Below, piece after piece: positions 1,880 to 56,751 of a DNA stretch of 64,000 nucleotides. Location of the stretch: contig JBBIRO010000008.1 of NCBI GenBank assembly GCA_037441775.1, positions 13,054 through 77,053 on the forward strand. Reading direction: 5' to 3'. Source of the DNA: Syntrophobacterales bacterium. Lineage in GTDB: Bacteria > Desulfobacterota > Syntrophia > Syntrophales > CAMTWB01. Within the stretch, counting starts at the first letter, position 1; each line of letters starts with the position of its first letter. Under the pieces are notes generated by a model. It saw nothing but the letters and a program-made list of their open reading frames with translations. It had not been told where the DNA came from and did no database searches. The translations under genes and the position numbers were made by a program.

Positions 1880-2034
1880 TGACGAATTAGCAAAAAAGTC
1901 CGATTTCCCCTCACATTGCGGGAGGCGATAAAGTGGATGGGGCTGAACATTTGAAATGAAGGCTGTTACCTCCATTATCGTAACCTCTCTCCCCTCAAGG
2001 TACAGGGAGCTTGCAACTATTTACTAAGACGTTA
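1880..2034 (+). mobile_element. Diverged copy of the TGAYGG...MITE-like repeat family (copy F)
   Basis: The left end TGACGAATTAGCAAAAAAGTCCGAT resembles TGACGGCTTCGTAAAAAGTCCGGAT of the copy at 40723. The right end CTATTTACTAAGACGTTA resembles CTATTTACGAAAGCGTCA of the copy at 49859. The interior is diverged. Confidence 0.4.
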
Positions 2035-2848: not shown

Positions 2849-3646
2849 ATGGAGCCATTGAGCATGGACGTCAGACTGCGAGCGATCAGAAAAAAATTGC
2901 TGCCCCTGGGGCTGGCAGTACTTAGCCTGATGATCATCGGCTGTTATAAAGCAACCGGGCCGATGCTTGCCACACCACAGGCGCCGGCTGGGAAATTATT
3001 GTCTCCGGTCGGTTTTACCATCCAGGCGGGAGCCTTCCTGCGGGTGGAAAATGCCGCCCGCCTGACCGCCACTTTGCAAAATCAGGGACAGGACGCCACC
3101 TATTTCCAGGATCATTCCGGCCTGTACAAGGTTAGATTCGGCAGCTACAACAATCGTACCGAGGCTGAAAGAGCAGCTCATGCTCTCAAGGGAGAAGGCA
3201 TAATCGACGATTTCATCATTATTGTCCCCGAGGAATCACCGGCTTGGCGCAGCAAAAACCTGGGCACCAACTATCTGCGCGCAGAAATCACCAAAACCGC
3301 TGTTGGTTTTATCGGGATCCCCTACCTTTGGGGTGGCAGCGACATCGATTCCGGTTTCGATTGCAGCGGCCTTACCAAGGCTGTCTATCAGCTAAACGGC
3401 ATCAAGCTGCCCCGCACCTCGCAAGGACAATACGCAAGCGGTCATCCCGTAGACCGGTTAAAGCTTTCTCCGGGGGATCTGCTATTCTTTGCAGTTCAGA
3501 AGCCGGGCGACATTTCCCATGTGGGAATATACATTGGCAACGACCAGTTTGTCCATGCCCCCAGCCAGGGAAAACAAATACGTCTGGACTCGCTTGGTCA
3601 GCCGTATTATCAAAGCAGATTTAAGGGCGCGCGCTCTATTCTATAA
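2849..3646 (+). CDS. Lipoprotein with a SPOR peptidoglycan-binding domain and a C-terminal NlpC/P60 endopeptidase domain
   Basis: Lipobox-like LMIIGC. SPOR-like FTIQAGAF...YKVRFGSYNNRTEAERAA. NlpC/P60 catalytic pattern GFDCSGL...ISHVGIYIGNDQFVHAP. Confidence 0.85.
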   Translation: MEPLSMDVRLRAIRKKLLPLGLAVLSLMIIGCYKATGPMLATPQAPAGKLLSPVGFTIQAGAFLRVENAARLTATLQNQGQDATYFQDHSGLYKVRFGSYNNRTEAERAAHALKGEGIIDDFIIIVPEESPAWRSKNLGTNYLRAEITKTAVGFIGIPYLWGGSDIDSGFDCSGLTKAVYQLNGIKLPRTSQGQYASGHPVDRLKLSPGDLLFFAVQKPGDISHVGIYIGNDQFVHAPSQGKQIRLDSLGQPYYQSRFKGARSIL

Positions 3647-3728
3647 TAGCTATTTGTAAAACGATAGTCAACTGGATATTGCCATTTCACCACAGTTATC
3701 AGGTGCGATATCAGGAAAGGAGGGCGAG

Positions 3729-4928
3729 ATGAAATACCCGAACGCAAAGTTTGAACCGTTCTTCAACTGGTGCAACCGGCCGCGAATTCTCTATGCTCCC
3801 GCTATCCGCAGCGAGGTGGGCTACGAAATGGGTCAGCTGGGCGGCAAAAAAGTGATGATCTTTACCGATCGCGGGGTACGGGAAGCCGGGGTCACCGAAA
3901 TGGTTGTGGCGGCCGCCCGGAAAGGAGGTCTCCAGATAGCCGGCATCTTTGACGCTATCCTCCAGGACGCCCGGATCGACATTATTAACCAGGGGGCCGC
4001 GTTTTATCGCGAGGCCGGAGCCGATTCCATGATTGTCGTCGGCGGGGGCAGCGTGATGGACACCGCCAAGGCGGTGAATATCATGATCGGCCAGGGTGAA
4101 GAGGATTTCCAGCCGCTGGCGGATCAGGCCGGGCTTTATGAGGGCGCCGCACCGCTGCCCCCGCACATCGCCTTCCCCACAACGGCTGGCACCGGTTGCG
4201 AGGTTACCCAGGCGATGGTGGTATTGGATACCAAAGCGCTGATAAAACTATCCGTGACCCACCCATTCTGTAACGCCGATGTCGCCATGCTGGATCCTGA
4301 GTTGACGATCAATCTCCCGGCCAGAATCACCGCTCAGACGGGAATGGACGTTTTGACCCACGCCATTGAAGGGATCTCATCCCGGGGCGCCCAACCCATC
4401 TCCGATGCCCTGGGGCTGCACGCCATACGGCTCGTCTTTACCAATCTTCCAATTGTTATTGAGGAGCCGCAAAATATTGAAGCCCGGGGCAACATATTAA
4501 TCGCCAGCACCATGGCCGCCATGTGCTTCATCAACAGCATGCTCGGCGCGGTTCACGCCACGGCCCATGCTTTGGGCGCCCGCTATGGCATACCTCACGG
4601 CCTGGCCAATGCCGTAATGCTGCCTGCGGTGATGGCCTTCAACAGTGAGGAGATCCCGGAACGCTTCCTGATGATTGCCGACGCGATCGGCATTGATACC
4701 AGACAGCTGCCCCCCATAGAGGCAGCCATCCAGGCGGTGGCGGCCGTAAGCAAACTCAAGCAGGATATCGGCATTACTGAAACTCTGGCGGATCTGGGGG
4801 TGCCGGCGGCGGAGTCGGACTTGCGGGAACTGGCGGAACTGGCGGCCGGCGACGGGCAGATCAGCTATAATCCGAGATACCTGGAAGAAGAGGACATTAT
4901 GAACCTTTACCGGAACGCCCGAAAATGA
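3729..4928 (+). CDS. Iron-containing (group III) alcohol dehydrogenase
   Basis: Fe-ADH architecture with GGGSVMDTAK and a His-rich metal site (HAIEG...AVHATAHALG...HG). 399 aa; GGAAAGGAGGG RBS upstream. Confidence 0.9.
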   Translation: MKYPNAKFEPFFNWCNRPRILYAPAIRSEVGYEMGQLGGKKVMIFTDRGVREAGVTEMVVAAARKGGLQIAGIFDAILQDARIDIINQGAAFYREAGADSMIVVGGGSVMDTAKAVNIMIGQGEEDFQPLADQAGLYEGAAPLPPHIAFPTTAGTGCEVTQAMVVLDTKALIKLSVTHPFCNADVAMLDPELTINLPARITAQTGMDVLTHAIEGISSRGAQPISDALGLHAIRLVFTNLPIVIEEPQNIEARGNILIASTMAAMCFINSMLGAVHATAHALGARYGIPHGLANAVMLPAVMAFNSEEIPERFLMIADAIGIDTRQLPPIEAAIQAVAAVSKLKQDIGITETLADLGVPAAESDLRELAELAAGDGQISYNPRYLEEEDIMNLYRNARK

Positions 4929-7288: not shown

Positions 7289-8284
7289 ATGCAGGAAAAC
7301 GACACAAAAACAGGTTTTTTTCAACGATTAAAAGAAGGGCTTTCCAAAACAAGAGCCGCCCTCATTGGCAACATTGATCAACTCTTTGCCGGCAAGAAGG
7401 TCATCGATCACGCCCTCCTGGAAGAGATGGAGGAGATTCTCATCATGGCGGATGTCGGCCCCACTTTTGCGCTCGAGCTGATTGAAAAGGTCCGGGAAAA
7501 GGCCTCCCGGAACGAACTTGTCAACCCAGCGGCATTGAAGGAAATATTAAAAGATCACATCCGGGAGATACTTGCTTCCTGTTCATCTCCCCTGGCGATA
7601 CCACGAAACGGCATTTTCACCATCCTGGTGGTAGGGGTAAACGGCGGTGGAAAAACCACTACCATCGGTAAGATCGCCTACAATCTGAAGGACCAGGGCC
7701 TGTCTCCTGTTCTGGTGGCGGCGGATACCTTCCGGGCGGCGGCAATTGAGCAACTTGAGGTGTGGAGCAGCCGGGCGGGAGTTCACCTGGTAAAACAGCA
7801 GGCCCAGGCGGACCCCTCGGCGGTGGTCTTCGATGCCCTCAAATCGGCAGCCGCCATCAAGGCGGACGTCATGCTCATCGATACAGCCGGGCGGTTGCAT
7901 ACCAAAATAAACCTGATGGAAGAGATCAAGAAGGTGAAGAGGATAATGGCGCGGGAGCTTCCCGGAGCTCCTCATGAGGTGCTGCTTGTCCTGGACGCCA
8001 CTTCCGGCCAGAACGCCGTGGCTCAGGCGAAAATGTTTCAGGAAGAAGTAGGGGTGACAGGTCTGGTTTTGACCAAACTTGACAGCACCTCAAAAGGCGG
8101 CGTCATCATAAGAATTGCCCGGGAACTTCAGATTCCCATCCGTTACATTGGGGTTGGCGAGGGATTGGATGATCTAAAAAACTTCGACAGCGAAGATTTT
8201 GTTAACGCCCTCTTCAAAAGTGATGAACTCGTAACAATTCGGTCAAAAGCAAATATTTTGGACGGCTTTGTAAAAAGATCGTGA
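7289..8284 (+). CDS. ftsY: Signal recognition particle receptor FtsY, with an atypical ~20-aa C-terminal tail
   Basis: SRP GTPase motifs GVNGGGKTTT, DTAGR, TKLD. The conserved end ...FVNALF is followed by KSDELVTIRSKANILDGFVKRS, which is encoded by the repeat at 8221-8390. Confidence 0.95.
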   Translation: MQENDTKTGFFQRLKEGLSKTRAALIGNIDQLFAGKKVIDHALLEEMEEILIMADVGPTFALELIEKVREKASRNELVNPAALKEILKDHIREILASCSSPLAIPRNGIFTILVVGVNGGGKTTTIGKIAYNLKDQGLSPVLVAADTFRAAAIEQLEVWSSRAGVHLVKQQAQADPSAVVFDALKSAAAIKADVMLIDTAGRLHTKINLMEEIKKVKRIMARELPGAPHEVLLVLDATSGQNAVAQAKMFQEEVGVTGLVLTKLDSTSKGGVIIRIARELQIPIRYIGVGEGLDDLKNFDSEDFVNALFKSDELVTIRSKANILDGFVKRS

Positions 8285-8390
8285 GGCAAGGCTCTCAAAT
8301 CCGTAAGGAATGAGTGGTACTTCTGGGTGCGCCGTAGTGACTTGGGATTTAGCTTGAATGTAAGCATCCGGACTTTTTACAAAGCCATCA
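8221..8390 (-). mobile_element. MITE-like repeat, full-length copy A (170 bp)
   Basis: On the minus strand it starts TGATGGCTTTGTAAAAAGTCCGGATGCTTA, 27/29 identical to copy C. It has an internal inverted copy of the terminus (CTTTTTACAAAGCCGTC at 8261-8277) and a terminal TTGTTACGAGTTCA. It overlaps the 3' end of ftsY. Confidence 0.7.
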
Positions 8391-8533
8391 TGAATGGCCA
8401 GTTGAACATTTCCCGGGATGATCGTACGCAGGTTGTTGAAGTCCAAGACAATGCCGTTGAAGAGGCGGCCAATCGCCGCTACCTTCTGCGACTGCCGGAG
8501 CTGCTCTTTTAGAAGCTTGTTTTGCTTATCGAA
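8391..8533 (-). pseudogene. Relic of a sensor histidine kinase (dimerisation/H-box segment only)
   Basis: The minus-strand frame reads FDKQNKLLKEQLRQSQKVAAIGRLFNGIVLDFNNLRTIIPGNVQLAIH. This resembles the HisKA H-box (QK.EAIGRLAGGIAHDFNNLL), but Leu replaces the phospho-His. There is no N-terminal part (in-frame TAA at 8534-8536), and the frame runs directly into MITE copy A. Confidence 0.4.
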
Positions 8534-8960: not shown

Positions 8961-10928
8961 ATGAGGTACGCAGAGACCGGATTCAATTTGGAAATTGATC
9001 TGACCCGGGGAAGCATCGATCGGGTGGCTACCGATCCCAGAGATACCGAATTATATCTGGGAGGGTTAGGCACTAACGCGAAAATTTTGTGGGAGCGGGT
9101 TCCTCCGGAAGTTGAGCCCTTTTCTCCCGATAATCTGCTGATATTCGGCACCGGTCTTTTATGTGGCACTCCTGCTGTCGGCGCTAACCGCACCATTGTT
9201 TCCACCATTTCTCCTCAAACGCGGTTAATGGCATTTTCCATGATGGGAGGATTCTGGGCGCCCGAATTGAAGTATGCCGGTTATGACAAGGTTATTTTTC
9301 GCGGCAAATCCCCCCGACTGGTTTATCTGTGGATCCACAATGACCAGGTGGAAATCCGTGATGCCTCTCATTTGCAGGGTTTGGGCGCGGTTGAAACTCA
9401 GGAACTTATTTGCAAGGAGTTGAAAGAGCCAAAGGCGCAGGTCGCCGCCATCGGTCTGGCCGGTGAAAACCGGGTCTATTTCGCCTCCATCGAGCAGGGC
9501 AGATCGAGCGCCAGCCGGGGGGGGATCGGCGCTGTTATGGGAGACAAGGGAATAAAGGCCATCGCCGTCCGGGGAACCAAGGATGTCAATATTGCACGGC
9601 CGCCTGAGTTCCTGGAGCTTTGCAAAGAAGTGCTGAAATATATTCAATTTCGCGAGGAAAATCCGGTTCCGGGGGTGATGCCCATTTTGGCGGGCCTGGG
9701 GTCGCCGCAGGAGATGAAGGTGCATGATGAGAAGTGGCACACCGAGAATTTCATGTGGGGAAATTCCCGTACCCGCCGCAAGGATTTTTGGAACGAGGAG
9801 ATTGAAAAGCAGTGGACGGAAACCCTGGTAGGCGCTCAGCGACGTCTGATTAGCTGCTATAACTGTCCGATGAAATGCGGGGCGACCATTTCCCTCCCGG
9901 GAGTTCCTACCTACATGATGAAATGCTTCACCAAGCTTACCTATACCATGGCAGCCTATTCCGACCTGGAGTTTGGCTTGAAAATCGCCGGGCGGGCGAC
10001 GGAGTACGGCGTGGACGGATACTCAGCACCGCAGGTTATGGCCTTTGCAATTGAGCTTTATGAAGCCGGCATTTTGACCGACGAGGATATGCCGGGAATG
10101 CCCTCTGATAATGAGGGGAGGTTTTACTGGCTTCTGGACAAAATTGTTCGCCGGGAAGGGATCGGAGATATCCTGGCCAATGGAACCTATTGGGCGGCTC
10201 AGCTGATTGGCAAGGGAGCGGAGGCATATGCTCATAATAACATTAAAAAACATGAGCAGCTTCCACTTAAACTGTCCATGTTGAATCCCATTTATTTCCT
10301 CATGTATTCAACGGGTGAGAAGATAAACATTACCCAGATTGAGGGACAGTTCCCCCAGGCGCCCTTTATCACCGAAGCGGAAAGGGAAGAGTTTGTCAAG
10401 GACTGGTTCCAGGTTCCCGACGAAAAATTTAAAAAGTATTTACTGGACTGGGAACCGCGGGGAGAAAACTCCAACCCGTACTATCCAACTGTCCAAATGA
10501 GCTGCGAAATTGTGGACTGGCAAGAGCAGATGCACTACATTGATGACGCCCTTGGCATCTGCGCCGGATTGTCGTCGTTTCCCCTGAAGCCTCCCTATCA
10601 CATCCATAACTTCCCGAAATTTATCTCCGCCGGAGCGGGAATTGATATGGATGAAGAGCACTTGACGCAAACCGCAAGGAGGATCAGGACATTAGTGAGG
10701 GCTTTTAATATCAGACAGGGTCTAAGCCGGGCTGATGAAGCGCCGCCCGAAGACCACTGGAAAAAAAGATTTCCCGAGCTGGAAGCCAAACTCTTAGATG
10801 AGTATTATAAATTCAAGGGATGGGATAATCGGGGTGTTCCCACAAAAGAGTCGCTGCGGGAACTGGATATGGATTATGTCAGCGAAGACTTGGAACAAAG
10901 AGGGATCATCAAAAATGACCGCGCTTAA
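8961..10928 (+). CDS. bamB: Class II benzoyl-CoA reductase, tungsten/pterin active-site subunit BamB (AOR family)
   Basis: As far as I recall, the N-terminus MRYAETGFNLEIDLTRGSIDRVATDPRDTELYLGGLGTNAKILW is nearly identical to Geobacter metallireducens BamB. AOR-family fold, 655 aa. It is followed by the seven partner genes in canonical order. Confidence 0.85.
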   Translation: MRYAETGFNLEIDLTRGSIDRVATDPRDTELYLGGLGTNAKILWERVPPEVEPFSPDNLLIFGTGLLCGTPAVGANRTIVSTISPQTRLMAFSMMGGFWAPELKYAGYDKVIFRGKSPRLVYLWIHNDQVEIRDASHLQGLGAVETQELICKELKEPKAQVAAIGLAGENRVYFASIEQGRSSASRGGIGAVMGDKGIKAIAVRGTKDVNIARPPEFLELCKEVLKYIQFREENPVPGVMPILAGLGSPQEMKVHDEKWHTENFMWGNSRTRRKDFWNEEIEKQWTETLVGAQRRLISCYNCPMKCGATISLPGVPTYMMKCFTKLTYTMAAYSDLEFGLKIAGRATEYGVDGYSAPQVMAFAIELYEAGILTDEDMPGMPSDNEGRFYWLLDKIVRREGIGDILANGTYWAAQLIGKGAEAYAHNNIKKHEQLPLKLSMLNPIYFLMYSTGEKINITQIEGQFPQAPFITEAEREEFVKDWFQVPDEKFKKYLLDWEPRGENSNPYYPTVQMSCEIVDWQEQMHYIDDALGICAGLSSFPLKPPYHIHNFPKFISAGAGIDMDEEHLTQTARRIRTLVRAFNIRQGLSRADEAPPEDHWKKRFPELEAKLLDEYYKFKGWDNRGVPTKESLRELDMDYVSEDLEQRGIIKNDRA

Positions 10929-19618: not shown

Positions 19619-19811
19619 GCATTTGTCGCGCCTTAGCCTTGCCGACTTTTTACATAGATGTCGCCCGGACCTTTGGTGCCCGTCAGTGGAGGGCACCAGG
19701 CAACCCCAGAGCCGTAAGCGGGCGGCGCGAGCGTAAAGGGGCAACCTTTTTCGCGGGACTTTCCTGAATTGCGATTTGGCGTCTTTTTACCAGGGCGCCA
19801 ATCTGGAAAGG

Positions 19812-31282: not shown

Positions 31283-31423
31283 ATAAGGGTGCGCTTCAAT
31301 TATGACGGGCTTGTAAAAAGTCGGCCCGATGTAAGTTTGAGGACGGCTTGGTAAAAATGTCGCTCGCCCTGGCGCGCAAATCACGGGAAATATGGTATTT
31401 CATTTGTCTGGGAATATAGGAAG

Positions 31424-39279: not shown

Positions 39280-39353
39280 GCCTACAACAGCATCAACACG
39301 GACTGGCTATTCCGCTGCGTTCCGTTGTCAGCCGGTTATGCGGAGCGTTAGCC
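39280..39353 (+). repeat. attC-like imperfect palindrome, copy 1 (74 nt)
   Basis: GCCTACAAC...GTTAGCC. ~85% identical to the copy at 40061. Folds with arms GCATCAACACGG / CCGGTTATGCGG, leaving two unpaired bases on the 5' arm. Confidence 0.5.
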
Positions 39354-39384
39354 GTCTAAGCAATGACGTAAGGAGGATTAGCGT

Positions 39385-40041
39385 ATGAAATTGAAAACAA
39401 TGATCGTCATGGTTGGGATTATTGCATGTGTGATTATTGCATGTGTATCGGGTAGTACCTTTGCCCAAGATACTGTGGTGAAAGAGTTCTCCGGATCAGG
39501 TGGAAAAAACACAAGCCCTTTTTCAGTAAAGGATGGGTGGGAGATTCAGTGGGATGCTAAGGGCGATATTTTCCAGCTGTTTCTATACACAGCAAAAGGA
39601 GATATGGGAGGCGTTCCGGCGAATCAACAAGGATCTGGCAAAGGGTCATCCTACCAAGCCAAAGGCGGACAGTATTATCTTCAGGTTAATGCCATTGGGA
39701 ATTGGGCTATCAAGGTGGTTCAGACTGGCGGGCAGTCTTCCAGTGTAGAGGTGAACAAGAGCGACTCAAAGACAACCTCTTCCGAAATTGCGACCTTTTC
39801 TGGCTCTGGTGGCAAGAACACTAGACCATTTACGACCACCGGGCCTTGGGAGATTCAGTGGGATGCTAAGGGCAATATTTTCCAACTGTTTCTATACACA
39901 GCAAATGGAGATATGGCAGGCGTTCCGGCAAACCAGCAAGGATCAGGCAAAGGAACATCTTTTCAACCCAAAGCTGGCAAATACTACCTTCAAGTGAACG
40001 CAATCGGAACTTGGAGCATAAAAATAGTCCCCGTAAGGTAG
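39385..40041 (+). CDS. Secreted protein made of two tandem ~100-aa repeats, unknown family
   Basis: Signal peptide (VSGSTFAQD). Repeat unit FSGSGGKNT.PF....WEIQWDAKG.IFQLFLYTA.GDM.GVPANQQGSGKG.S.Q.K.G.YYLQVNAIG.W.IK.V occurs twice. AAGGAGG RBS. Confidence 0.7.
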   Translation: MKLKTMIVMVGIIACVIIACVSGSTFAQDTVVKEFSGSGGKNTSPFSVKDGWEIQWDAKGDIFQLFLYTAKGDMGGVPANQQGSGKGSSYQAKGGQYYLQVNAIGNWAIKVVQTGGQSSSVEVNKSDSKTTSSEIATFSGSGGKNTRPFTTTGPWEIQWDAKGNIFQLFLYTANGDMAGVPANQQGSGKGTSFQPKAGKYYLQVNAIGTWSIKIVPVR

Positions 40042-40060
40042 ACGAGGAATAGGAATGGGC

Positions 40061-40135
40061 GGCTAACAACCGCATCAACTCGGACTGGCAATTCCGCTGC
40101 GCTCCATTGCCAGCCGATTATACGGAGCGTTGGCA
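40061..40135 (+). repeat. attC-like imperfect palindrome, copy 2 (75 nt)
   Basis: GGCTAAC AA CCGCATCAACTCGG A CTGGCAAT tccgctgcgctcc ATTGCCAG CCGATTATACGG AGC GTTGGCA. The left end GGCTAAC is the exact reverse complement of GTTAGCC, which ends copy 1. Confidence 0.5.
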
Positions 40136-40696: not shown

Positions 40697-40935
40697 GCAT
40701 AACAACCTCAGCCATCAACATTTGACGGCTTCGTAAAAAGTCCGGATGCTTAAGTTGTGCCGCATCACCAGTCACTCAAGGCGTACGTAAAGAACGCCTT
40801 ATACCTCGTGATTTGTGCGCCTTGCCCCAAGGCCTTTTTAAAAAGCCGCCCTCAAAACTTTCATTTATGTGATTTTTTACGAATGCTTCAATATTTCACG
40901 CCCGTTTGGTTATTGGCGGTTGTTCCGGTTTATGC
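40697..40935 (+). repeat. Possible third attC-like palindrome, split by MITE copy C
   Basis: Joining 40697-40722 (GCATAACAACCTCAGCCATCAACATT) to 40891-40935 (...GGTTATTGGCGGTTGTTCCGGTTTATGC) gives a 71-nt imperfect palindrome. Its ends are GCATAAC / GTTTATGC and its paired arms are AACAACC / GGTTGTT. Confidence 0.3.
40723..40890 (+). mobile_element. MITE-like repeat, full-length copy C (168 bp)
   Basis: Left terminus TGACGGCTTCGTAAAAAGTCCGGATGCTTA. Internal inverted terminus CTTTTTAAAAAGCCGCC (40834-40850). Right terminus TTTTTTACGAATGCTTCA, the inverted repeat of the left end. Confidence 0.7.
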
Positions 40936-49307: not shown

Positions 49308-49384
49308 GGTGGTTCGCGCATCGCCTCGTTAGGAAGACGAACAATGGCAAGTCTAAAATCGAACTTTGCATGAAAGGAGTGCAT

Positions 49385-49861
49385 ATGCCCAAAAAGGCCT
49401 TTCAGGATTACTACCCGGATCATCTAAGCCATTGCTACGGTTGTGGGCGCCTCAACGAAAAGGGGCTCAGGATCAGGAGTTACTGGGATGGCGAGGAATC
49501 CATCTGTATTCATGAGCCGAAGTCTTACCACTCCGCCATTCCCGGTTTTGTCTATGGGGGGATGATCGCCTCGCTTATTGACTGCCACAGTACGGGCACG
49601 GCGGCGGCGGCCAAGTACCGCTTTGAAGGCCGGGAAATGGATAGCGACCCACCGCTGCGTTTTCTCACCGCTTCCCTCCACGTCGATTTCCTTTTACCGA
49701 CACCTATGGGCGTCCCGCTGGAAATCCGCGGCCGGGTGAAGGAGGTCAAGGGGCGGAAAGTGGTTGTGGAATCCACGCTCGGCGCCAACGGGCAAATCTG
49801 CGCCCGTGGCGAGGTGGTGGCGATTCAGGTGCCGGATCACTTGATTCCCCGGCAGTCTTGA
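49385..49861 (+). CDS. PaaI/4HBT-type hotdog-fold thioesterase
   Basis: CYGCG...GL zinc-ribbon-like N-terminus followed by HG.PGFVYGGMIASLIDCH, typical of PaaI-like thioesterases. AAAGGAG RBS. The stop codon TGA is the first triplet of MITE copy D. Confidence 0.75.
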   Translation: MPKKAFQDYYPDHLSHCYGCGRLNEKGLRIRSYWDGEESICIHEPKSYHSAIPGFVYGGMIASLIDCHSTGTAAAAKYRFEGREMDSDPPLRFLTASLHVDFLLPTPMGVPLEIRGRVKEVKGRKVVVESTLGANGQICARGEVVAIQVPDHLIPRQS

Positions 49862-50027
49862 TGGTTTCGTAAAAGGCCCGGCTGCTTAGGTTCAAGCTAA
49901 AACCATCGTCACTGCTGCTTACTCTAAACACTCATCATTACTTGTGATTTACGCGCTCAACCCTAGCGTGCTTTTTACAAATCCGTCCCAAATTAAAGAT
50001 TTTTGCAGCTATTTACGAAAGCGTCAA
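49859..50027 (+). mobile_element. MITE-like repeat, full-length copy D (169 bp)
   Basis: TGATGGTTTCGTAAAAGGCCCGGCTGCTTAGGTTCAAGCTAAA... Internal inverted terminus CTTTTTACAAATCCGTC (49972-49988). Right terminus CTATTTACGAAAGCGTCA. It shares TTCAAGCTAAA and CACTCAT blocks with copy A. Confidence 0.7.
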
Positions 50028-50123
50028 GACTCAATCGTGACTTCATCACGATGTAAGAAGTTGTCTTGTGCCCGTTACTGTGGTAAGCTCCGCATAAGTA
50101 GATGAGGTTAAGGTGTTGGGAAG

Positions 50124-56000: not shown

Positions 56001-56619
56001 GGACAAAAAGGCGCTGCTGGAAAAATTTGGCGAGGTGAATCTGCTGGCGCTTACGGAGCATGAGAAGCTCAAGGAGCGTCACGAATTTCTTTTTGCGCAG
56101 ATGGAGGATCTGAAGGCCGCGATAGATTCACTCAATAAAACAATTTCCCGGATCAACCGGATTACCCGCAGTCGTTTTTCCGATACTTTCCGCGAGATAA
56201 ACGAGCGTTTTCAGGAAGTTTTCCGCGTTCTTTTTCCGGGTGGCCGGGGCAGATTGCTGCTTACCGATGAAGAGAATCTGCTGGAGACCGGCGTCGATAT
56301 GGATATTCAAATTCCGGGTAAAAGGCTTCATGGCCTAAGTCTCCTCTCCGGAGGCGAAAAGACTCTGGCGGCAATAGCCCTAATTTTTGCCATTCTGCGT
56401 TACCGTCCCGCGCCGTTTTTAATTCTTGACGAGGTTGATGCCGCTTTAGATGATGTCAATATTGCGATCTTTAACGGACTAATCCGCGATATTGCGGAGA
56501 AGTCGCAGATCATCATGGTAACCCACAACAAACTTTCCATGGAGGTGGCCGACAGTCTCTTTGGCGTAACCATGCAGAAAAAGGGCTTGTCCAGCCTGAT
56601 TTCAGTTAGCCTTAACTGA
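53053..56619 (+). CDS. smc: Chromosome partition protein SMC
   Basis: Walker A GPNGCGKSNIVDA, long coiled coils, hinge (GLMADFMDVPKEYETAVEVALG), signature LSGGEKTLAAIAL, Walker B FLILDEVDAALD. 1188 aa. Confidence 0.97.
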   Translation: MKLKRLEIAGFKSFRERVILDFSAGISAVVGPNGCGKSNIVDAIRFAMGEQRVRSLRGKSMDDIIFNGSEEAAAVGMAEVSLILARGDQPFPGSYGECAEVMVTRRLSRGGESDYFLNRVRCRHLDVREFFMGTGAGARSYSLVEQNSVTAMVEAKPEEIRLYIDEAAGISKYKGRRESALRKLDATRQNMLRLNDIIGEVKTSLASTAKQARRAKQFKELRQEIREGETILAWQAYNDLSGRREQQIAVLNDLQRDALESEVRLLTLESCCEAAKVDVQEEEQKVAAEQDRFASLKSALAIKEQGTAFARNKLQELAAREIKLREELTGISQRQREHGKEADQLTALIAADQAQLEEVKKTIRDQENRLAAARLLARESQREAEEKRSQCYNAATEKTRLDNQLVSLEKNSEEMRKRREASGREESELGGRLRELEERLDRLRNALEEDSDALVKLKERGRLASEEEERAREELREAEETIAELKVDRGGKASRLQSMKEFRDGYAFLNEGARSIMKVGKEGHKGKLNGFSPLGLMADFMDVPKEYETAVEVALGEKLQYVAVSSYSDALTAIGYLKTSGAGRGSFVPLELDGQAPDLPAESGIKGAVRLIDVIGFSGVFRHLGEVLLGDVYLIENLAEGLDLRTHGGTKPVFVTADGDLITTQGVLTGGFSGNGQLSLLKNRREITELELSLSAIDQDIDRWTRQRMEASSLSQRWRDEITEARAAQHRIELQINGKKKDCERYGDEIRRLKQRLTVIALNISQLTEEIDRSRTKHEALKSEIAGKAEQESRLNAELAETKRTWDLLQSGLQDQEQELLKGSVLMATLEQKREANIRTKTRLDDSLAILQRQGQQREREIAASLAAYEELTANIRLEEENLRELYLQYGSVEQSLAEMKEKLRLGKEALRNQELEREQARAVARELAGTISRHEGAIRELSFQMDSLREATAGKYHLDLASWVPETPPATLDAYMLRQQVQDKKALLEKFGEVNLLALTEHEKLKERHEFLFAQMEDLKAAIDSLNKTISRINRITRSRFSDTFREINERFQEVFRVLFPGGRGRLLLTDEENLLETGVDMDIQIPGKRLHGLSLLSGGEKTLAAIALIFAILRYRPAPFLILDEVDAALDDVNIAIFNGLIRDIAEKSQIIMVTHNKLSMEVADSLFGVTMQKKGLSSLISVSLN

Positions 56620-56751
56620 CGACTTCGGGGGATATGGAGCTAACTACTTGAGATAAACGCCATTGTCACCATCTCACCATACCTCTTTCCTCAAGTGAGA
56701 GGCGGCTTTTGGTTTCTTTACGAAGTCTTCATTTTGACCGCTTGCCACACC

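Follow-up and report, generated by a model that had tools for sequence, protein, structure and literature searches.

A probable MITE family in Desulfobacterota and Nitrospirota, marked by 6–7-bp AAWWTT duplications and a triplicated end motif

Short non-coding repeats of nearly equal size recur in a 64,000-nucleotide stretch of DNA from a Syntrophobacterales bacterium (hereafter the window), raising the question of whether they are mobile elements and, if so, of which kind. An earlier note, made from the sequence alone, had proposed a non-autonomous MITE. That reading is supported by our analysis, as the testable features of a MITE are found at the level of the family, and we consider the repeats very probably to be copies of a cut-or-copy DNA transposon that is non-autonomous. 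They lie in a Smithellaceae/Syntrophales genome. The MoaA protein encoded in the window matches a protein of the MAG GCA_964457235.1 at 100% identity and those of two relatives at 84–86%, and the named MoaA relatives belong to the Smithellaceae/Syntrophales; an exact-protein look-up with the thioesterase gave no match. The genes flanking the window copies are housekeeping genes (ftsY, ddl, an HMGL-like gene, a thioesterase gene and moaA), and no transposase is encoded among the genes neighboring these copies.

Window copies and the anatomy of the element

Scanning the window with an nhmmer profile built from 89 relatives recovered the three full-length copies that had been described by eye. 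These are copy B at 40724–40889 (plus strand; 166 nt, GACGG...GCTTC; match 40724–40890, E = 5e-29), copy A at 8222–8389 (minus strand; 168 nt, straddling the end of the ftsY gene on its 3' side; match 8221–8389, E = 4e-28) and copy C at 49860–50025 (plus strand; 166 nt, with its first base within the TGA that stops the thioesterase gene; match 49860–50026, E = 6e-22). The window copies recur in loci L008 and L009, which derive from the same organism. A fragment previously placed at 31303–31372 is real and longer than noted, comprising a 3' half copy at 31304–31398 (minus strand) that retains part of the hairpin together with the internal motif (31342–31360) and the terminal right-end motif (31304–31322). 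It lies ∼20 nt past the ddl stop codon and its match (31303–31394, E = 4e-8; E = 1e-11 with a 5-copy profile) covers profile positions 73–152.

We therefore count four solid occurrences in 64 kb in place of the seven that had been claimed. The supposed diverged copy at 1880–2034 scores E ∼8 against the family profile; its ends are degenerate, and the region 1881–2033 (plus strand) is a weak candidate for a decayed sister element of the same end type with a different interior, CCCCTC/GGGAGG (6 mismatches in total over the two ends, flanks matching at 4/6 positions). The stretch at 56617–56731 likewise scores E ∼8, just ∼11 nt of inverted termini being present. At 19640–19672 a single motif with 4 mismatches stands beside a GCCTTGCC block and falls short of significance (E = 0.5); a possible short fragment at 19621–19662 (plus strand), consisting of this block and the internal-motif-like CTTTTTACATAGATGTC, is plausible but unproven.

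Across 106 non-redundant copies the true ends of the element are GAYGG...CRTC. These exact ends lie one base inside the positions given earlier on each side: the A after CATC covaries with the flank, so that the T and A of the TGA...TCA termini noted before belong to the duplication. A 17–19-nt motif, GAYGGNTTCGTAAAAAG(TC), is present three times per element, once at the left tip and twice, inverted, near the right tip. The first inverted motif closes a ∼120-nt imperfect hairpin and the second, ∼28 nt further on, forms the right tip, bearing out the three-part layout recognized in the window copies (a left motif, then after ∼110 nt an inverted copy, with another inverted copy forming the right end). 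The terminal inverted repeats are 19–21 nt long and pair in all copies, and conservation exceeds 90% at the positions of the left-end motif. The core, ∼122 nt long and bounded by a palindrome, is followed in 106 of 143 cases by a tail, typified by ccgaaattcGACTTTTTACGAGnnCATC, which holds the third motif copy and brings the modal full form to 152 nt. Elements overall are ∼150–170 nt long, and the window copies (166–168 nt) exceed the modal length solely because the spacer before the tail is longer. The element is without any ORF, in line with the earlier remark that no ORF of transposase size is associated with the copies.

In copy B, a motif scan found the left terminal motif GACGGCTTCGTAAAAAGTC (40724–40742, plus strand) with 0 mismatches to the family consensus; this is the presumed transposase-binding site. 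The internal inverted motif (40832–40850, minus strand), which pairs with the left end and closes the long hairpin, has 4 mismatches, as does the right terminal motif (40871–40889, minus strand), which is also placed by the family alignment. When up to 4 mismatches are allowed, the 19-nt end motif GACGGCTTCGTAAAAAGTC has 11 sites in the window against 0.15 in shuffles, and it is probably a binding site for the transposase. Window cores are 70–78% identical to the family consensus (78% for copy B and 70% for copy C). The 27/29 identity reported for the first bases of copies A and C was not reproduced; we counted 25/30, and the figure suits the comparison of A with B (28/30). Among the internal blocks described as shared, TTCAAGCTAAA is confined to copies A and C, and the alignment does not show it as a block of the family.

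Insertion, spread and shared ends

Target-site duplications, which the earlier note could not identify by eye, emerge at the family level. With the element taken as GACGG...CATCA, the five bases before it matched the five after it exactly in 38 of 91 non-redundant copies, compared with 1.4 for shuffled pairings, and 20 further copies of the 91 matched at 4/5 positions. When the last base was relaxed, the A following CATC proved to covary with the base lying six positions ahead of GACGG, including cases with a non-A first duplicated base (TTTTTT/TTTTTT, TTTCTT/TTTCTT and CTACTT/CTACTT). Once the ends are set at GAYGG...CRTC, an exact 6-bp duplication flanks 44 of 106 copies and several copies have 7 bp. 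The duplication has the consensus AAWWTT, with a near-palindromic logo (first A 90%, last T 93%), and the target often has (T)C before it and G(A) after it, that is, (T)C/AAWWTT/G(A). Within the window a duplication is kept at copy B only, as the remnants AACATTT (40717–40723, plus strand) and AATATTT (40890–40896, plus strand), which agree at 6/7 positions; copies A and C have no recognizable flanking duplication left. The flanks of copy C (49854–49859/50026–50031) are perfect inverted repeats, AGTCTT/AAGACT, not the expected direct repeats.

Comparison of occupied and empty sites gives the same picture of insertion. At L034 the sequence AAGGAGA stands on both sides of the element, just upstream of a start codon, and the orthologous spacer of L032 contains a single AAGGAG, making the two loci a filled/empty pair with a duplicated ribosome-binding site. 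In close relatives no element separates ftsY from the sequence downstream of it; the spacer on the far side of copy A is also altered, and this comparison is not a base-perfect empty site. The thioesterase–moaA spacer of the nearest relative offers no clean empty site and holds a different short element. In L004 this spacer contains an element (9634–10001) with G-rich repeats, CCCAAAGGGGGGCAGGGGGGATTT occurring twice, and with a right end, TTATTTTTAGTTCGTC, that resembles the family end motif; several public contigs break inside the spacer.

The window copies are mutually 67–71% identical, whereas the within-genome median identity of copies elsewhere is 93–98% in four of the six genomes compared, the remaining two giving 85% and 87%, indicating that the window holds old relics of a family recently active elsewhere. 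The near-identical copies within other genomes represent recent bursts; young copies are present in D. variabilis (NZ_CP159846.1), in D. cetonica JCM 12296 and in MAGs such as JAUVGT01, where they are ∼98% identical. The window copies, old and decayed, are probably immobile.

The strict left-end 29-mer had no match in 185,579 species-representative genomes and identified three full elements in unrelated metagenome contigs. A looser pattern, in which the left motif and the inverted internal one stand 75–105 nt apart, retrieved at least 118 stretches from the species-representative genomes, most pattern matches falling on both strands because the core is bounded by a palindrome. The family is visible in these genomes only with the two-motif pattern. 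Hosts among the matches listed are mostly Desulfobacterales, together with Syntrophales/Syntrophus and Thermodesulfovibrionales/Nitrospirae MAGs, and cultured hosts include Desulfosarcina variabilis Montpellier and D. cetonica JCM 12296. Up to 12 copies were found among the examined pieces of one MAG, and copies occur in unrelated contexts and in both orientations. Further copies beyond the window are therefore abundant, and the alignments span the whole element, not just the A/T-rich core to which the earlier note thought they might collapse.

Neither PLSDB plasmids nor INPHARED phages contained a match to the element, and blastn gave none in 5,426 E. coli genomes. Rfam covariance models detected nothing but tRNAs, both in the window and in five loci whose copies are well preserved, and a literature search found neither a described family nor ISDol1 end sequences for comparison. 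The family is apparently new to description and common in sulfate-reducing and syntrophic bacteria, and automated MITE catalogues (e.g., PMC11602168) may already hold it unnamed.

The same 19-nt ends also bound unrelated interiors. Short elements of this kind with a perfect 6-bp duplication are found at L031 6747–6881, L039 5442–5574, L056 51–183 and L066 4165–4406, and a further one lies at L020 942–1020, where the 6-bp repeat was read by eye. Such sharing of ends fits a transposase that recognizes the motif whatever the interior. A tail-less core, L124, has its own ATATTT duplication, showing that the internal motif can serve as an end. The element of L031, in a Neomarinimicrobiota MAG, is flanked by a perfect ATATTT duplication, and L061, from an Elusimicrobia MAG, has degenerate end motifs only and no matching duplication; the family ends in these phyla could be due to horizontal spread or to binning contamination.

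The autonomous partner IS with the same ends that the earlier note suggested looking for did not come to light. No autonomous element with family ends was found in 870 kb of loci, in viral contigs, or in the plasmid, phage and E. coli collections, and an all-against-all comparison of the 870 kb of loci yielded no multi-copy ORF. Matches in viral contigs were rejected as partners, being short elements or chance matches. Inverted motif pairs 0.7–5 kb apart were also rejected, since they enclose a HepT/MNT pair (L010) or an Fe–S protein (L102), with no transposase and without duplications. In L010, a 52-nt deletion derivative of the element (3141–3192) and a solo right end flank the nucleotidyltransferase/HepT toxin–antitoxin pair with no matching duplication, and the region (3141–4147) is probably not a composite element.

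The hairpin and competing explanations

According to the MITE reading, a DDE-type transposase encoded elsewhere, of which we infer both the type and the binding, would recognize the motif and cut A/T-rich targets in a staggered manner, the cuts lying 6 or, in some cases, 7 bp apart, and repair would then duplicate the bases between the cuts. The ends, the duplications, the target preference, the empty site, the high copy number, the bursts elsewhere and the occurrence of the ends on other interiors all speak for it. Against it stand the failure to find an autonomous partner in the collections searched, the missing duplications of copies A and C, the occupied thioesterase–moaA spacer of the nearest relative, and a feature that a plain double-strand DDE mechanism does not predict, namely a compensated hairpin with a strand bias.

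A well-preserved copy (L072) folds into a single long stem of −70 kcal/mol. RNAalifold predicted almost no structure from the whole 89-sequence alignment. We projected the structure from one well-preserved copy onto the 89-copy alignment and counted pairs. The projected hairpin comprises 43 pairs, with 85.9% of cells paired compared with 30–43% when the partners are slid; changes on both sides are seen in 18 of the 43 pairs, and there are 273 doubly changed cells versus 120 ± 10 in shuffles. A ∼120-nt hairpin is kept by compensatory changes across orders. On the left-to-right strand, non-Watson–Crick cells are far more often C.A/A.C than G.T/T.G (230 vs. 44), as a result of which the complementary strand folds better. 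It does so in 120 of 137 copies (the hairpin region of copy B is 40743–40831), with a median folding energy of −59.1 kcal/mol for the better strand and −49.8 kcal/mol for the other, these fold counts being non-independent because subfamilies share ancestry.

Orientation shows no preference relative to flanking genes (37 co-directional, 27 opposite) and no link to flanking GC skew (75 vs. 57, p = 0.33), so neither a simple transcription- or replication-linked mutation bias nor one-sense co-transcription accounts for the asymmetry. It may stem from selection on a single-stranded RNA or DNA form in the lineages that seed new copies. The stem lies between an A5 run and a T5 run, a layout with which the hairpin could serve as a two-way transcription terminator or as an mRNA-end stabilizer; a simple terminator scan did not register the long hairpin. 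It is possible, if rather doubtful, that the hairpin is a functional single-stranded module, either an RNA that ends or stabilizes transcripts or a folded DNA strand needed by the transposition machinery. Such a module would account both for the compensatory upkeep of the stem and for the strand bias in 120 of 137 copies.

One alternative is a hairpin-based element that an HUH/Y1 enzyme moves in the form of single-stranded DNA, in the manner of REP/BIME with RAYT or of IS200/IS605-derived palindrome-associated elements. In its favor, the core is a long imperfect palindrome with compensatory changes, and single-strand selection would give the better folding of one strand and the excess of C.A/A.C over G.T/T.G that are observed. 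Such elements, however, make no target-site duplications, which at 6–7 bp are the rule here; they have subterminal hairpins in place of matched terminal inverted repeats; REPs are merely 20–40 nt long; and, instead of a fixed tetranucleotide target beside one end, the present family has the near-palindromic logo AAWWTT. We regard this explanation as very unlikely. The same duplications and the empty site, which demonstrate insertion, weigh against non-mobile structured RNA genes or cis-regulatory RNA elements repeated for their function, an alternative that the earlier note had itself raised. In its favor are the covariation (both sides changed in 18/43 pairs; 85.9% paired vs. 30–43%), the strand-asymmetric folding and the conservation of several unpaired blocks. 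The conserved hairpin is indeed present, but it sits inside a mobile repeat. The copies have no preferred orientation relative to flanking genes (37 vs. 27), their neighboring genes are unrelated, Rfam has no match, no conserved promoter is apparent from the sequence, and near-identical copies within genomes indicate bursts, making this explanation extremely improbable.

Setting the fold aside, the 17–19-nt motif might be the operator of a host regulator, in which case the repeats would have arisen in place, as regulatory sites or native terminators. We give this almost no credence; the motif is far above chance (11 vs. 0.15 in shuffles) and the copies are intergenic and close to gene ends, but the whole 150-nt unit is conserved across orders and not the motif alone, the flanks carry duplications, and the flanking genes share no function.

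Among known systems, the MITE reading places the family beside bacterial MITEs such as RUP of Streptococcus pneumoniae and Nezha of cyanobacteria, which are likewise short and non-coding, with terminal inverted repeats and a target-site duplication, and have many intergenic copies, genome-specific bursts and mobilization in trans. The present family differs from these in its own end sequence, GAYGGNTTCGTAAAAAGTC, in its 6–7-bp AAWWTT duplication, in the third, internal end motif, and in its hosts, the Desulfobacterota and Nitrospirota. The Correia elements (NEMIS) of Neisseria are ∼100–155 nt long, form a long hairpin when transcribed, insert near genes and alter transcripts; their duplication is TA and their 26-bp ends are unrelated in sequence, in contrast to the 6–7 bp AAWWTT found here. 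ERIC/IRU sequences of enterobacteria are alike as ∼120–127-nt imperfect palindromes that are intergenic, often transcribed and conserved in structure, but they have no sequence similarity to the family (no blastn match in the 5,426 E. coli genomes). ERIC sequences are not known to have clear duplications or clear current mobility.

By analogy, the asymmetric ends, with one putative binding site on one side and two direct copies on the other, may be likened to those of Mu, Tn7, Tn402/Tn5053 and IS21; these end in TG...CA and mostly make 5-bp duplications, whereas the present family has GA...TC and 6–7 bp. The ISDol1 group (ISNCY), first described in a Desulfococcus relative, makes 6–7-bp duplications and occurs in the same bacterial lineage. 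By duplication size and lineage it is a candidate lead for a partner. The family does not belong with IS200/IS605-derived elements or REP/BIME, having duplications and terminal inverted repeats, nor with integron attC sites, as the family alignment contains no GTTRRRY cores (R''/L''–L'/R') and the neighbors are housekeeping genes.

Effects on gene ends

Two of the window copies appear to have rewritten the ends of genes. The window FtsY is 331 aa long and its Pfam SRP54 domain ends at residue 309; relatives at 76–87% identity have 312 aa, ending in KND or KAD before the stop. Read from copy A, the element-terminal GAT replaces the last native codon, GAC, and the element supplies the frame for D312, a 19-residue tail ELVTIRSKANILDGFVKRS and a new stop (8222–8284, plus strand). 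Judged from the reading frame, copy A replaced the ftsY stop codon and would add 19 residues to the protein. In the thioesterase ORF (49370–49861), the TGA stop (49859–49861, plus strand) is composed of a flanking T and the first two bases, GA, of copy C, which thus rebuilds the stop codon with its own sequence.

Most copies (118/143) are intergenic, and many lie within ∼20 nt of the end of the upstream gene. Of 139 left junctions, 20 have a flanking T that joins the element GA to form the stop of an ORF of at least 80 codons, and 7 of 106 right ends likewise close an ORF. The idea that the element prefers stop codons was nevertheless rejected, as 26% of the tolerated TTGA sites taken as controls from these loci do so as well; the closure of ORFs results from the TT/GA target together with selection against disruptive insertions.

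Several further features lie near the window copies. Beside copy A, a segment at 8392–8530 (minus strand) includes a degenerate stretch resembling a histidine-kinase H-box, QKVAAIGRLFNGIVLDFNNL; this ∼150-nt segment is absent from the ftsY–tRNA spacer of the relative L136 and looks like a gene fragment left by rearrangement. Two pairs of direct repeats occupy the region 39284–40134: one of 168 nt, at 83% identity, lies within the PPC-domain ORF 39385–40041, and the other, of 69 nt and at 87% identity, flanks it. Upstream of moaA, a block conserved between the window (50055–50095) and L004, L005, L007 and L010 resembles a sigma-70 promoter (TTGTCT, 17 nt, TAAGCT), and Rfam detected no Moco riboswitch there.

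The family is unannotated yet frequent in the genomes and MAGs of sulfate reducers and syntrophs, and a model of the family would explain many of their intergenic repeats. Some of its copies rewrite the ends of genes, adding 19 residues to FtsY in the window and supplying a gene's stop codon in 27 copies elsewhere, and the copies lend themselves as markers with which insertions can be dated and followed from one related MAG to another. Only the hairpin, conserved and strand-biased, might lead to something new.
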